A DNA stretch of 10,351 nucleotides from a virus (Duplodnaviria; Heunggongvirae; Uroviricota; Caudoviricetes), in the IMG/VR virus record IMGVR_UViG_3300032605_000010; one strand, 5' to 3'. The translations under genes and the position numbers were made by a program. Positions 1,425-3,999 of this stretch are shown here, one piece after another. Within the stretch, counting starts at the first letter, position 1, and each line of letters opens with the position of its first letter. A model generated the notes under the pieces. The model ran no database searches. It was given only the letters and a program-made list of their open reading frames with translations, and was not told where the DNA came from.

Positions 1425-1544
1425 TTACTCTCCCAAACCCAAATAATAATTAGTTAAGATTTGTTTCAATTTGTATTGGATGTAATAAACTACACCGAAA
1501 CCAACAAAGATTATTCCTAAAGACACATAACTAGCTATACTCAT
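1425..1544 (-). CDS. small membrane peptide (39 aa, MSIASYVSLGIIFVGFGVVYYIQYKLKQILTNYYLGLGE)
   Basis: ATG directly after cassette C2 RBS; one hydrophobic stretch; stop 1 nt before the next ATG. Not in the ORF track. Confidence 0.7.
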   Translation of the reverse strand: MSIASYVSLGIIFVGFGVVYYIQYKLKQILTNYYLGLGE

Positions 1545-1612
1545 TTTAATTCTCTCTCTATCAATTTAGTATAAGTTATTATACCTTAACGAATAGAAAG
1601 AATCAAGCACTT
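1545..1612 (-). promoter_or_regulatory. Cassette C2
   Basis: TTGATT (1601-1606), 17 bp, TATAAT (1578-1583), GA-rich RBS. Confidence 0.9.
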
Positions 1613-1627
1613 TGTTGCTCTTTTATT

Positions 1628-1703
1628 TGGAGCCACTGAGAGAACTCGAATCCCCAACCTTCTGATTACAAATCAGACGCACTACCAATTGTGCTACAGT
1701 GGC
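1628..1703 (-). tRNA. trnT: tRNA-Thr(UGU), CCA encoded
   Basis: 76-nt cloverleaf: GCCACTG/CAGTGGC, D stem GCAC/GTGC, TCTGA-TTTGTAA-TCAGA, T loop TTCGAGT. T stem is weak (A53-U61, two G-U pairs). Confidence 0.9.
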
Positions 1704-1706
1704 AAA

Positions 1707-1870
1707 TTAAATAAGTTATTGTTCTCAATCGAAGTCGAACCGATGTTTCTCAACTAGAGTGTCCTAGCCCAAACTAGACGACAGAAATAAATCTCCGATG
1801 GGATTTGAACCCATGTTTCTCAATTAGAGCGTCCTAAGCCTCTAGACGATAAGAGGAATAACTTATTTAA
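1707..1870 (-). ncRNA. candidate ncRNA: two tandem tRNA-Glu-like domains with shortened anticodon arms inside a 14-bp closing stem
   Basis: Inverted repeat TTAAATAAGTTATT at 1707-1720/1857-1870; two units with GTCT..GGAC D arm, CTC-5nt-GAG mini arm and 5-bp T arm; dedicated upstream promoter. Confidence 0.6.
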
Positions 1871-1873
1871 ATT

Positions 1874-1907
1874 ATTATACTTTAATCAGATGTATTTGTT
1901 AACCACT
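1874..1907 (-). promoter_or_regulatory. promoter without RBS module upstream of the candidate ncRNA
   Basis: AAGTGG-TTAACA (1897-1902), 17 bp, TATAAT (1874-1879); predicted start near 1867. Confidence 0.65.
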
Positions 1908-2053
1908 TTTTTACATCTTTTATAAACTTTTTTCGATTCGAACACTTTCGGTTTGTTATATTTCCAAGCATGTCAAGATGTTAATTGAATCATAAAACAG
2001 GCTTTAACAGCATCAAGGTCTGTTTTGTGAGTCTTTTTCTTTAAAAACGTCAA
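1886..2053 (-). pseudogene. possible interrupted small basic protein
   Basis: GAGAGA then TTG at 2053 (only 3 nt spacing); in-frame TGA at 1973-1975 followed by HAWKYNKPKVFESKKVYKRCKK. Confidence 0.3.
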
Positions 2054-2081
2054 AGTTCTCTCTTTGGGTATTGCTGTTTAA

Positions 2082-2243
2082 TTATACAACTTCTCTTTCT
2101 ATATAATAGAATTCAGACTCATACCTTCACTGTGAAAAAGTATATGCGGTCTGCTCATCTTCAAAAGTACCTGCGATTTTTGGTTCTTCCATGTAAGAAT
2201 CATCATAATACATTACATTATAAACATATTTCTCTTTATTCAT
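2082..2243 (-). pseudogene. cassette C3 gene with in-frame TGA (38 aa, or 53 aa with readthrough)
   Basis: MNKEKYVYNVMYYDDSYMEEPKIAGTFEDEQTAYTFSQ*RYESEFYYIEREVV*; TGA at 2127-2129. Confidence 0.55.
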
Positions 2244-2313
2244 ATTATATAATTCTCTCTATCAATTAAGTATAAGTTATTATATATAAGATAGAGAGAA
2301 ATATCAAGCACTT
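2244..2313 (-). promoter_or_regulatory. Cassette C3
   Basis: TTGATA (2302-2307), 17 bp, TATAAT (2279-2284). Confidence 0.9.
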
Positions 2314-2325
2314 TGTTTAAAAAAA

Positions 2326-2400
2326 TTAGAGAGCAAATTTGAGGACTCTTACCCCATCTTTTAATCCAAGCCTAAACACCAACTTGGAGATGCTTTCTAA
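2326..2400 (-). ncRNA. candidate 75-nt structured RNA, copy 1 (3' of tRNA-Met)
   Basis: Closing stem TTAGAAAGCA/TGCTCTCTAA, hairpin TCCAAG/CTTGGA, T-arm-like TGGGG-TAAGAGT-CCTCA; paralog at 2501-2576. Confidence 0.5.
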
Positions 2401-2420
2401 TGGTTGATCAGACCAACATT

Positions 2421-2495
2421 TGGTAGCAGGAGTTGGATTTGAACCAACGATCTTTGGCTTATGAGACCAACGAGATACCACTTCTCCATCCTGCG
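2421..2495 (-). tRNA. trnM: tRNA-Met(CAU), initiator (fMet)-type, CCA encoded
   Basis: 75-nt cloverleaf; unpaired C1/U72; A11-U24; anticodon arm TTGGT-CTCATAA-GCCAA; T arm GTTGG-TTCAAAT-CCAAC. Confidence 0.9.
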
Positions 2496-2500
2496 ATAAA

Positions 2501-2576
2501 TTAGAGAGCAAATTTGAGGACTCTTACCCCATCTTTTACCTAGACAATTAACCCCAAATCTAGTAATGTTTTCTAA
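2501..2576 (-). ncRNA. candidate 76-nt structured RNA, copy 2 (3' of the tRNA-Gln fragment)
   Basis: Same flanks as 2326-2400; the middle hairpin has a different sequence but still pairs (CTAGA/TCTAG). Confidence 0.5.
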
Positions 2577-2596
2577 TGGTTGATCAGACCAACATT

Positions 2597-2645
2597 TGAA
2601 GTTCCTACAGGATTCGAACCCATAATACCACAGTCAAAGTGTAGT
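2597..2645 (-). pseudogene. 3' half of tRNA-Gln(UUG)
   Basis: CTACA-CTTTGAC-TGTGG anticodon arm, ATGGG-TTCGAAT-CCTGT T arm, 3' acceptor strand AGGAACT-TCA; no 5' acceptor strand or D arm. Confidence 0.7.
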
Positions 2646-2653
2646 ATGTGTAT

Positions 2654-2686
2654 ATTATACTATCGGTATTACCAAATATCAACCAT
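2654..2686 (-). promoter_or_regulatory. promoter occupying the place of the tRNA-Gln 5' half
   Basis: TTGATA (2677-2682), 17 bp, TATAAT (2654-2659); the -35 overlaps the TGA stop of 2679..2933. Confidence 0.7.
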
Positions 2687-2933
2687 TGATTAAACTATTT
2701 TCAACAAGTTTAACATCTTTATGCATCACGTAAAATGAATCTGGAAATTCACTAAACGAAATCGCATAAACTTTTGACACACTTTTTTCTTCATTTTTTA
2801 TCAACACATCATAATTGTCAACTCTAACATTGGCAATGGTATCGATAATCGGTTCAAAACCACCAAAATCATATTCAACTTCTAAACCTTTAACACTGTT
2901 AATATCTTGTTTCATCATTTCTAATACAGTCAT
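2679..2933 (-). CDS. hypothetical protein (84 aa)
   Basis: ATG directly after cassette C4 RBS. Confidence 0.8.
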   Translation of the reverse strand: MTVLEMMKQDINSVKGLEVEYDFGGFEPIIDTIANVRVDNYDVLIKNEEKSVSKVYAISFSEFPDSFYVMHKDVKLVENSLING

Positions 2934-3000
2934 TTTAATTCTCTCTCAATTTCAAAGTATAAGTTATTATACCTTAACGATTAGAAAGAATCAAGCACTT
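2934..3000 (-). promoter_or_regulatory. Cassette C4
   Basis: TTGATT (2989-2994), 17 bp, TATAAT (2966-2971); spacer 16/17 identical to C2. Confidence 0.9.
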
Positions 3001-3015
3001 TGTTGCAGTTTTATT

Positions 3016-3090
3016 TGGAGCCACTCCACAGAATCAAACTGCGATCTAGAGATTACAAATCAGACGCACTACCAATTGTGCTACAGTGGC
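3016..3090 (-). pseudogene. chimeric/degenerate tRNA-Thr(UGU)
   Basis: First 40 nt and last 10 nt identical to 1628-1703; middle replaced; anticodon stem reduced to 2 bp; different intact T stem CGCAG/CTGTG; G7.G66 mismatch. Confidence 0.75.
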
Positions 3091-3093
3091 AAA

Positions 3094-3254
3094 TTAAATT
3101 ATAAAGACTGTAGGAATTGAACCTAACATAGAGACAGACCAAGCCACAACCAATGGTTATTTTTAAGTAGGAGAATTGAACTCCTTCGCAGGTCCTAGGG
3201 CTCCACTTTAACCAAAATAATCCTAAAAATAAAACATCAATCTTTATAATTTAA
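3094..3254 (-). ncRNA. candidate ncRNA: two T-arm domains inside a 16-bp closing stem
   Basis: Inverted repeat 3094-3109/3239-3254; T arms AGGAG-TTCAATT-CTCCT (3169-3185) and TAGG-TTCAATT-CCTA (3111-3125); same position relative to tRNA-Thr as 1707-1870. Confidence 0.5.
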
Positions 3255-3324
3255 ATTGCCCTCTTCGACTATGTATCCATAATCCTATCGACTTTAGGCT
3301 TTGCCGTTTTCCTAATTTTGGATG

Positions 3325-3438
3325 TTAATTTCCTATTAAAGAAACTAATATAACAGTCACAATAAATAACTGCCCGATTATATTCATTGGTAAAGTTACA
3401 ACAAATTCTTTTGGCTGCCTTACTTTATAATCTTTCAT
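3325..3438 (-). CDS. small membrane peptide (37 aa, MKDYKVRQPKEFVVTLPMNIIGQLFIVTVILVSLIGN)
   Basis: ATG after cassette C5 RBS; hydrophobic C-terminal stretch. Not in the ORF track. Confidence 0.65.
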   Translation of the reverse strand: MKDYKVRQPKEFVVTLPMNIIGQLFIVTVILVSLIGN

Positions 3439-3506
3439 TTTATTTCTCTCTCTATCAATTAAGTATAAGTTATTATATATAAGATAGAGAGAAATATCAA
3501 GCACTT
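3439..3506 (-). promoter_or_regulatory. Cassette C5
   Basis: TTGATA (3495-3500), 17 bp, TATAAT (3472-3477); spacer identical to C3. Confidence 0.9.
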
Positions 3507-3528
3507 CTGTATTTAATATAAAGATAAT

Positions 3529-3999
3529 TTATGCTGCTTCTTCCTCTTCGTAAAGTGCCATATTTTCAGAGATGGCAAAACAATCATCAATTTCTTTGGG
3601 GATATTTTCTTCCACCCAATTAGAATCACCTTGGATACTGTATTCATCTTCCTCACCATCCTTGAATGCCCCACAGAAGCCAATACCGCCTTCGTAATAA
3701 AAAGCTGTAACAGTAAACCCAAGTTCCTCAAGTTTTTGGTATCCTTCTATTGGAGGGCTCCAAGCTGAATCAAAATACACCCCGACTGAAGTATCTGTTT
3801 GTTCATAAATATATGCTTCTACAACGTCCCATTTGGTTCCCCAATTTTCCACTACGAAGCCATATTCCGATTCACAATCAGCTGGGATAGGTATAAATTC
3901 ACGAAGGAAACTATCGTTCTCCAAGGCTGCCACAGCTCTTTGGATCATAATTGGATCATCATGTTCTAAACGTAAATCATTTGAGCACCAATTAGGCAT
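3529..3999 (-). CDS. DUF1281/YubB ferredoxin-like family protein (156 aa)
   Basis: Motifs MPNWCSN, ENWGTKW, FDSAWSPP, YYEGG recognised from memory; AAGGAG RBS. Confidence 0.75.
   Translation of the reverse strand: MPNWCSNDLRLEHDDPIMIQRAVAALENDSFLREFIPIPADCESEYGFVVENWGTKWDVVEAYIYEQTDTSVGVYFDSAWSPPIEGYQKLEELGFTVTAFYYEGGIGFCGAFKDGEEDEYSIQGDSNWVEENIPKEIDDCFAISENMALYEEEEAA

Follow-up and report, generated by a model that had tools for sequence, protein, structure and literature searches.

The tRNA cluster of phage T4 holds two genes for RNAs that are not tRNAs, rnaC (species 1) and rnaD (species 2), which lie beside the tRNAs on the same strand, downstream of tRNA-Arg. In the fold of species 1 RNA, a canonical T arm stacks on a terminal stem that is formed by its own 5′ and 3′ ends. 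To our knowledge no function has been assigned to the stable non-tRNA RNAs of phage tRNA clusters since the T4 species 1 and 2 RNAs. Further likenesses to the element described here come from three other systems. YrlA RNAs, some of them phage-encoded, mimic the D and T arms of tRNA on a terminal stem and carry, close to the 5′ end, the Ro-binding motif GNCGAA(N)G (PMC4201824). In MALAT1, RNase P makes the 3′ end by cutting before the tRNA-like mascRNA (PMC8457004). Finally, PeSL promoter cassettes mediate gene shuffling in T4-type phages (PMC2839356, PMC4122927).

We examined a window of 10,351 nt, which is part of a 37.4-kb IMG/VR virus record (IMGVR_UViG_3300032605_000010) holding by estimate ~21% of the genome. 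It belongs to an uncultured T4-like phage of lake water: 93–96% of its tRNA cluster is present in 16 DNA runs that are labelled as lake-water metagenomes, and the 325-aa protein encoded directly downstream of the cluster is the nrdC.10-type ATPase of T4-like phages. Every gene and tRNA in the window is on the minus strand, that is, the transcribed strand, and a strong early promoter of the TTGAT-17-TATAAT kind precedes each gene. The element under study, el2, lies in this cluster together with a second element, el1, that serves for comparison. Positions within el2 are numbered from 1 (window 3257) to 167 (window 3091). In the order of transcription the features are:

3472–3500, minus strand: nearest upstream promoter-like site, TTGATA-17-TATAAT, driving the 59-aa ORF 3325–3504 and el2 by read-through
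3091–3257, minus strand: el2, 167 nt; homologs L005:5754–5920, L092:5495–5661 and L272:185–349
3019–3090, minus strand: degenerate tRNA-Thr-like gene directly 3′ of el2, a candidate RNase P handle
3′ of the degenerate tRNA-Thr in cluster order, minus strand: promoter and 84-aa gene
2607–2662, minus strand: 3′ half of a tRNA-Gln, 3′ of the 84-aa gene
After the tRNA-Gln half, minus strand: repeat of ~100 nt, tRNA-Met, second repeat, then small ORFs, in that order
1874–1902, minus strand: promoter, just upstream of el1
1704–1873, minus strand: el1, a different module, which in L272 lies directly 3′ of el2
1628–1703, minus strand: intact tRNA-Thr directly 3′ of el1

No promoter-like site was found between 3325 and 3257, leaving el2 without a promoter of its own in the window. 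There is no intrinsic terminator at el2 (no G+C-rich stem with a U tract after it), and no minus-strand ORF of at least 40 aa within it. A plus-strand ORF at 2815–3120 was considered as a small-gene reading of el2 and rejected, since it runs antisense to a gene and a tRNA. Among the larger proteins encoded nearby, Pfam and PHROG scans yielded no candidate RNA-binding partner. Exact RNA contigs from four lake metatranscriptome runs match 1500–3600 at 2366–2704 only; these are assembled contigs and are uninformative on expression. The sole RNA-contig match over an el2 edge is a 33-nt piece, 3255–3287, of another sequence.

An earlier reading from sequence alone had placed the element upstream of a tRNA-Thr. 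It does adjoin the gene at 3019–3090, but that tRNA-Thr is degenerate, scoring 43.4 bits with the Rfam tRNA model, with a broken anticodon stem and no call by ARAGORN; moreover, in the related phage L272 it is el1 that follows. Both known alleles of this gene keep the acceptor stem and T arm, with scrambled D and anticodon regions; the second allele has its D-arm region replaced, and one difference between the alleles converts a T-stem G-U to G-C. Broken tRNAs of the cluster include this gene and the tRNA-Gln 3′ half, and mosaic breakpoints fall within tRNA genes.

On the minus strand el2 can form a nested structure, running outer stem – [inner stem – hairpin – T arm 1 – inner stem] – hairpin – T arm 2 – outer stem. 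Its parts, all on the minus strand, are:

3238–3254 (positions 4–20), minus strand: 5′ strand of the closing stem P1, 17 bp with one G-U; pair probability 0.96–1.0 in all five haplotypes
3222–3232 (positions 26–36), minus strand: 5′ strand of the acceptor-like inner stem P2, 11 bp, invariant
3188–3206 (positions 52–55/67–70 and 58–59/63–64), minus strand: small hairpin P3, between P2 and T arm 1, in the minimum-energy fold of three haplotypes
3169–3185, minus strand: P4, T arm 1, a perfect 5-bp stem with loop UUCAAUU; pair probability 0.93–1.0 in all haplotypes, invariant
3157–3167 (positions 91–101), minus strand: 3′ strand of P2, starting one nucleotide after T arm 1
3143–3157 (positions 101–105/111–115), minus strand: small hairpin P5 with loop UGGUU
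3111–3125, minus strand: P6, T arm 2, a 4-bp stem plus a U-C mismatch, with loop UUCAAUU (UUCGAUU in L272), abutting P1
3094–3110 (positions 148–164), minus strand: 3′ strand of P1, followed by three U and then the tRNA-like gene

The components proposed by the sequence-only reading are all in place. Its 16-bp closing stem with one G-U is exact (positions 4–19 with 149–164), and G20-C148 supplies a seventeenth pair; its 9-bp acceptor-like stem (3157–3165/3224–3232) is likewise exact, and a G-U and a G-C pair lengthen it to 11 bp; its two T arms with TTCAATT loops are found at 3169–3185 and 3111–3125 of the minus strand, and both loops match the canonical T-loop pattern. The closing stem is the longest inverted repeat of the whole 10.3-kb window (23 nt, 91%, 127 nt between the arms), followed by that of el1 (22 nt, 126 nt between the arms). 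Folding of the minus strand of el2 gives −43.7 kcal/mol (z = −3.6; none of 200 shuffles did as well), as against −28.1 kcal/mol (z = −1.9) for the plus strand, and the G-U pairs of P1 and P2 form only in minus-strand RNA. T arms so close together are rare: 1.5 Mb of related phage DNA, picked regardless of T arms, holds only 6 pairs spaced 30–70 nt apart, and the reversed sequences hold none. Because of the long inverted repeat, the minus-strand z score and the rarity of close T-arm pairs, we conclude that el2 has a real, strand-specific architecture, in which a long clamp surrounds two T arms and an acceptor-like inner stem.

This architecture fits none of the RNA classes that were searched. 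ARAGORN makes no tRNA call on el2, and there is no full or partial match to the Rfam tRNA family (RF00005) in 3091–3257 at E ≤ 10; with no partial match in its interior even at that threshold, el2 is not a lightly decayed tRNA. The two T arms are its only tRNA-like parts, joined to stems of 17 and 11 bp; it has no anticodon arm, and no discriminator and CCA end on a 7-bp acceptor stem, the 3′ side of P1 being followed by UUU and the next gene. An Rfam scan over 1500–3500 found no family of any kind inside el2 at E ≤ 10, Y RNA and YrlA included. A tmRNA was sought as well, and neither a tmRNA-clan match nor an ARAGORN prediction was obtained. The ACAGCAA motif is absent from el2; its only copy in the window, at 2071–2077, is outside both elements and no more than expected by chance.

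Among the described systems, the T4 species 1 and 2 RNAs share the setting of el2, as non-tRNA RNA genes beside the tRNAs and on their strand in a T4-type cluster. However, rnaC has one T arm where el2 has two, the clamp of el2 is much longer and A/U-rich, and el2 lies upstream of a tRNA or tRNA-like gene, unlike the T4 pair with its place downstream of tRNA-Arg. A distant blastn search of a collection that includes T4 revealed no similarity between el2 and rnaC. YrlA-type Y RNAs resemble el2 in having an end-to-end terminal stem that carries a tRNA-like domain with a T arm and takes no part in decoding; they differ in having one D/T pair instead of two T arms, and a closed hairpin between the T and D arms in contrast to the open-ended, nested inner stem of el2. 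The YrlA motif GNCGAA(N)G is absent near the 5′ end of el2, where the only CGAA is in mid-molecule at positions 70–73, preceded by UG. Y RNA genes of this type lie within ~4 kb of a Ro60 gene and on its strand; a search of the whole 37-kb record, ~21% of the genome, gave no match to the TROVE/Ro60 domain (PF05731); DUF2828 was without a match in the record and likewise in the control genomes. In MALAT1–mascRNA, as here, a structured RNA is followed at once by a non-decoding tRNA-like structure that keeps acceptor stem and T arm, just what RNase P requires. MALAT1 belongs to the eukaryotic nucleus, however, cleavage at el2 is inferred, and in L272 the next unit is a structured RNA without a tRNA-like handle. 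As for PeSLs, el2 is situated inside an array of repeated early-promoter cassettes, and shuffling among close relatives has altered its presence, its neighbours and the tRNA alleles on its flanks; but PeSLs are short promoter-plus-terminator motifs flanking ORFs, whereas el2 is a passenger of ~167 nt with T arms, between cassettes.

We searched widely for further copies of el2. The cluster was compared by megablast and blastn with a collection of 50,697 phage records that includes T4; the outcome was no match or tRNAs alone, and the distant blastn, with 1560–3300 as query, matched only tRNA-Thr and tRNA-Met. Pattern scans of IMG/VR for the tRNA junction, the el1 core, a tRNA-Thr 25-mer and an invariant el2 31-mer had no match, nor did a pattern scan of genome contigs; a twin T-loop pattern matched mostly adjacent tRNA genes in IMG/VR. 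No related locus was found with a single ATPase protein as query. A search with an ATPase alignment yielded 80 IMG/VR loci (≤54% identity) and 50 metagenome loci, with el2 only in L092, a near-identical strain. A covariance model of el2 (R1), run over ~2.6 Mb of fetched loci, scored the variants of el2 itself at 195–215 bits; its weak matches (17–24 bits), in loci preselected for T-loop words, are tRNA pairs or unrelated multi-T-arm modules.

The sequence-only reading had also proposed a search for the closing stem plus double T loop before tRNAs in other phages. Modules of this kind do occur, unrelated to el2. A descriptor scan of phage tRNA clusters found unrelated closing-stem modules with two to four orphan T arms (L215, L232, L143 and L157), in loci partly preselected for T-loop words, so that the frequency of such modules is not to be read from them. 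One of these, L215:4307–4443, is followed by TTT and a tRNA, as at el2. None matches Rfam at gathering score.

The copies of el2 compared are strain-level ones from ENA and JGI contigs, plus one from the more distant phage L272, whose neighbouring ATPase is 78% identical in protein and 75% (74.9%) in DNA; el2 has thus been seen in two lineages only. The order in L272 is promoter (133–161), small hairpin, el2 (187–345), el1 core (338–500), tRNA-Thr (501–576), repeat and tRNA-Met. The promoter matches the consensus at 12 of 12 positions and is 25 nt upstream of el2, with no internal promoter further on. el2 is the best conserved segment, 96.9% identical (4 differences in 161 nt), compared with 95% for el1, 92% for the upstream ORF and promoter, 84% for tRNA-Thr, 82–86% for the repeat and tRNA-Met, and 75–78% for the ATPase gene; against tRNA-Thr, the repeat and tRNA-Met, and the ATPase gene the Fisher p values range from 3e-4 to 8e-12. 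However, L272:51–539, from the upstream ORF to the 5′ half of tRNA-Thr, forms one block of ~94% identity that looks recently exchanged. Within the block, el2 (4/161 differences) does not differ significantly from the rest (20/314; p = 0.078), and its high identity may therefore mean recent transfer instead of constraint. Between the window and strain L005, el2 is 97.6% identical against a background of 98.2%. el2 is absent from the relatives whose ATPase is 66–70% identical (L010, L011, L274 and L275), and in other contigs of that class the 59-aa and 84-aa genes are adjacent, leaving no room for it. As its tRNA-Thr neighbour is a pseudogene, selection on the entire module could be relaxed.

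What variation there is points to constraint through the placement of the changes, not through their low number. Five natural haplotypes are available (window, L005, L259, L264 and L272), and all known differences of el2 are G23A, a 2-nt deletion at 22–23, U53C, U105C, C115U, A140G and A164U. In P1, 16 pairs are invariant; A164U opens only the outermost pair, 4–164, which is unpaired in L272 at its joint with el1. The six internal differences spare all 74 nt of P1, P2 and both T stems (P4 and P6), with a chance of ~0.03. In P3, U53C turns a U-G pair into C-G; in P5, U105C does the same and C115U turns an A-C mismatch into A-U. A140G, in the second T loop of L272, is the only loop change, an A to G at purine position 57. 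L272 hence keeps the pairing predicted for an ortholog, in P1 (minus its outermost pair), P2 and the T-arm stems. No compensatory change on both sides of a pair occurs in any known copy of el2. These one-sided changes, seven differences in all, are consistent with the nested fold and are no proof of it.

Folding energies favour the nested structure unevenly among the haplotypes. It had been expected that folding would support the closing stem and the T arms, and for P1 and T arm 1 this holds throughout. In the window allele both have pair probabilities of ~1, but the inner stem has 0.00 and T arm 2 has 0.01 (0.44–0.52 in the C53 haplotypes), and an alternative fold without P2 or T arm 2 beats the nested architecture by 6.9 kcal/mol. 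P2 is absent from the minimum-energy folds of the window and L264 alleles. The complete architecture, P1 to P6, is the minimum-energy fold in three of the five haplotypes, L005, L259 and L272, all with C53, and the minimum-energy fold of the 338-nt L272 precursor is likewise nested. As a native fold, the minimum-energy fold of the window allele is disfavoured, because U53C, present in these same three haplotypes, breaks a U-A pair of its central helix.

el1 and el2 had been taken for one architecture preserved through near-total sequence turnover, on the grounds of similar length and the same termini. The likeness at the ends is confirmed by comparison of the junctions: the elements have their termini and the TTT-GCCAC junction to the next tRNA-like gene in common, and the surrounding scaffolds align without a single difference as far as the final 9 nt of each element. 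They further share an operon, A/U clamps, size, two T arms and the lack of anticodon loops. Inside there is no similarity in the alignment or by BLAST, and as a structural comparison R1 fails to find el1 at E ≤ 5. The connectivity differs as well. In el2 the segment that leaves T arm 1 pairs back to positions 26–36, closing a self-contained inner unit that is inserted between the outer 5′ strand and the remainder of the outer unit. In el1 the segment that leaves T arm a pairs instead with sequence further on, as a hairpin (CGGAGA/UUUCUG in the window, CGGCAG/CUGCCG in L275). Its outer acceptor stem leads into D arm a but stacks on T arm b, and with D and T arms swapped in this way the two bodies are interlocked or permuted. 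Unlike the nested el2, el1 also has recognisable tRNA-Glu-type D arms, a partial Rfam tRNA match (22 bits) and homologs at 72% identity, with compensatory stems, in L274 and L275. In those two phages el1 is followed by a module closed by a 13–14-bp A/U stem; the stem sequences differ, each pairs perfectly, and the interiors are unrelated.

L272 carries both el1 and el2, adjacent to each other between a single promoter and a single tRNA-Thr, which makes them two different modules and not diverged copies. Identical stem ends around unrelated interiors are the mark of a mosaic and not of stepwise divergence. The 9 nt that the termini have in common, and the matching place ahead of tRNA-Thr, look like a recombination joint, as in L272 the 3′ end of el2 runs into el1, not into a tRNA. 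In place of a shared architecture, we therefore regard el2 as a second, structurally different tRNA-mimic module of the same operon. That el2 is nevertheless a paralogue of el1, which equal length, termini and arm spacing and the two T arms in each would suggest, is scarcely credible in view of the tandem in L272, the nested versus interlocked connectivity, the failure of a covariance model of one to detect the other, and scaffolds that are identical to the stem ends and unrelated within.

Our preferred reading, held tentatively and at a little less than even confidence, is that 3091–3257 is a gene for a small structured RNA of the tRNA operon, tRNA-like and clamped by a stem, which would be co-transcribed with the tRNAs and released by RNase P. 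That el2 is a real structured RNA at all is probable, with moderate support, and debris of a recent exchange is a live alternative. By that alternative, el2 would be the remnants of two decayed tRNA genes, a neutral passenger in a recombination-prone early-promoter array of the PeSL type, looking conserved through a recent move. The cluster does contain other broken tRNAs (3019–3090 and 2607–2662) and breakpoints of mosaicism within tRNA genes, the presence of el2 varies among relatives, its conservation in the exchanged block is not significantly above that of the flanks, and shuffling by PeSLs is documented (PMC2839356, PMC4122927). Against this, decay does not produce a perfect 17-bp stem and a perfect 11-bp stem, both T loops are still canonical, the strand asymmetry of folding is strong, and the interior lacks even a partial Rfam tRNA match at E ≤ 10; in addition, the six internal differences are all outside the main stems, and the three in hairpins are compatible with pairing. 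We consider neutral debris unlikely, though to be taken seriously. As to whether a long-stem, two-T-arm RNA is under selection, as the sequence-only reading had it, the RNA feature is real and strand-specific and 97% identical in L272, but the ortholog offers no compensatory change.

Alternatively, el2 may act in cis, as a leader whose clamp and T arms only guide processing by RNase III, E or P or stabilise the tRNA precursor, the excised piece being idle. In every known case el2 is part of a tRNA transcription unit, 3 nt ahead of the tRNA-like gene in the window and 1–2 nt ahead of the next module in L272, and A/U-rich stems of 13–21 bp close unrelated interiors in L010, L274 and L275, so the stem may be the selected part. 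Such a leader would, however, serve a tRNA that is degenerate in the window; its interior is conserved as well as its stem and keeps both T arms, and these arms and the 11-bp inner stem would be superfluous if a processing stem sufficed. On balance we find a leader role possible and doubtful. A reading at the DNA level, with the 23-nt terminal inverted repeat marking a mobile or recombinogenic cassette and the stem having no role in RNA, draws on the two longest inverted repeats of the window having near-equal spacing (127 and 126 nt) and their outer 6–9 nt in common, and on the L272 junctions falling exactly at these termini. It is very improbable, given that the G-U pairs of both long stems become A-C mismatches in the other strand or in DNA, that the T-loop motifs are strand-specific, and that no transposase, homing endonuclease or target-site duplication is seen beside el2.

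If el2 is a structured RNA of the tRNA operon, its parts suggest how it might be made and act. P1 can form on the minus strand as a 17-bp A/U-rich clamp around a three-way arrangement. One branch is a self-contained minihelix unit of P2, P3 and T arm 1; the remaining branches are P5 and T arm 2, the latter set against the clamp in the way that the T arm of a tRNA is set against its acceptor stem. Both units lack an anticodon arm and a CCA end, so neither can serve as a tRNA in decoding. The RNA would be made within a polycistronic tRNA precursor, by read-through from the promoter at 3500–3472 in the window and from the consensus promoter 25 nt upstream in L272. By analogy with MALAT1, the 3′ end of el2 would be set free when RNase P cleaves before the tRNA or tRNA-like handle that comes next, and the paired ends would then shield the released RNA of ~165 nt from exonucleases. 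RNase P has a ruler that measures ~12 bp. The stacked helices of el2 extend 21 and 16 bp from the T loops, beyond this ruler, so the body should stay intact. In the most speculative step, the RNA would offer two tRNA elbows to a factor that reads the T arm or elbow, titrating or recruiting it; candidates are RNase P, T-arm modifying enzymes, the ribosomal L1 stalk and tRNA-directed host defence.

A bolder conjecture, to which we give little credence at present, is that el2 and its neighbour represent an undescribed class of stem-clamped, anticodon-less double elbows, made from the tRNA operon, released by RNase P and acting in trans during infection as decoys or adaptors for a host factor that recognises T arms or elbows, such as a tRNA-directed defence nuclease, RNase P or a T-arm modifying enzyme, with the modules of L215, L232, L143 and L157 as further members. 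Should el2 prove instead to be debris, it would be a warning that high identity and perfect stems can mean recent exchange in cassette-shuffling genomes. In any event el2 is a compact and clearly delimited case, with two bare tRNA elbows on long clamps, natural variants and a second genomic arrangement, that of L272, where it stands in tandem with a different tRNA mimic behind one promoter. As a stable RNA, it would be a simple construct with which to ask what reads the tRNA elbow in phage infection, and it bears on the survival of degenerate phage tRNA genes as RNase P handles.

L272:133-760, in a related phage contig, forms a single unit that runs from a consensus promoter through a hairpin, the element under study (window 3091-3257, minus strand) and the other element (window 1704-1873, minus strand) to tRNA-Thr, an approximately 100-nt repeat and tRNA-Met. 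In the L272 copy of the other element the 14-bp outer stem has no 5′ strand, and where the window has a 2x2 internal loop, two substitutions give a continuous acceptor stem of 9 bp (UUGCUCUUA/UGAGAGCAA).

Strains about 98% identical to one another carry the degenerate tRNA-Thr as two alleles (window 3019-3090 and L005:5921-5995). One allele has its first 40 nt in common with the intact tRNA-Thr; in the second the D-arm region is unrelated. Contig L268 pairs the window type of the element under study with the non-window allele of the degenerate tRNA-Thr, and therefore recombination has occurred between the element and the degenerate tRNA-Thr.

Exact matches to contigs from three lake metatranscriptome runs were found for window 2366-2704, which spans tRNA-Met, both of the approximately 100-nt repeats and the 3′ half of tRNA-Gln; the middle hairpins of these two repeats are unlike in sequence, with pairing in both. 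Elsewhere in window 1500-3600 no exact RNA contigs were found, and as these are assembled contigs rather than reads, their non-coverage of the element under study says nothing on its expression.

Multi-T-arm modules were found in unrelated phage tRNA clusters, at loci partly preselected for T-loop words:

L215:4307-4443, multi-T-arm module, followed by TTT and then a tRNA
L232:8097-8227, multi-T-arm module
L143:5576-5722, multi-T-arm module
L157:5614-5725, multi-T-arm module
L042:5685-5803, multi-T-arm module

These modules are 110-150 nt long, with a closing stem of 8-10 bp around two to four T-arm hairpins; ARAGORN made no tRNA call for any of them, and none matched an Rfam family at gathering score. 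At 1853-2063, the phage contig L215 also matches the manA RNA family (Rfam RF01745) at 101 bits, with tRNA genes on either side. Two adjoining odd RNAs lie at L059:17740-17990. The first, of about 115 nt, has tmRNA-like ends (5′ GGGGAGGG; 3′ a T arm plus CCCUCCCCA), but is very short; the second (122 nt) ends in ACCA and has two T arms as well as an acceptor stem of 7-8 bp. Outside the window in the same virus record, L002:12409-14185 is internally repetitive DNA that encodes two neighbouring proteins (244 and 328 aa) with RHS repeats (Pfam PF05593), which is unusual for the early region of a T4-like phage.

Among more distant relatives with homologs of the other element, the L274 and L275 contigs are near-identical apart from the module after the homolog, where L274:768-850 and L275:2951-3058 are different modules in the same position. 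Each has a perfect A/U-rich closing stem of 13-14 bp, and the stem sequences differ. The interior of the L275 module looks tRNA-like, with a T arm and a 7-bp hairpin whose loop is 7 nt long; that of the L274 module is without a T arm. At L010:12306-12592 the homolog has a linker of some 60 nt as well as a 20-bp closing stem of wholly different sequence, and is followed by a degenerate tRNA-like gene (Rfam 33.7 bits) in which a tetraloop replaces the anticodon loop. This layout, a structured RNA and then a tRNA-like handle, is the same as in the window.
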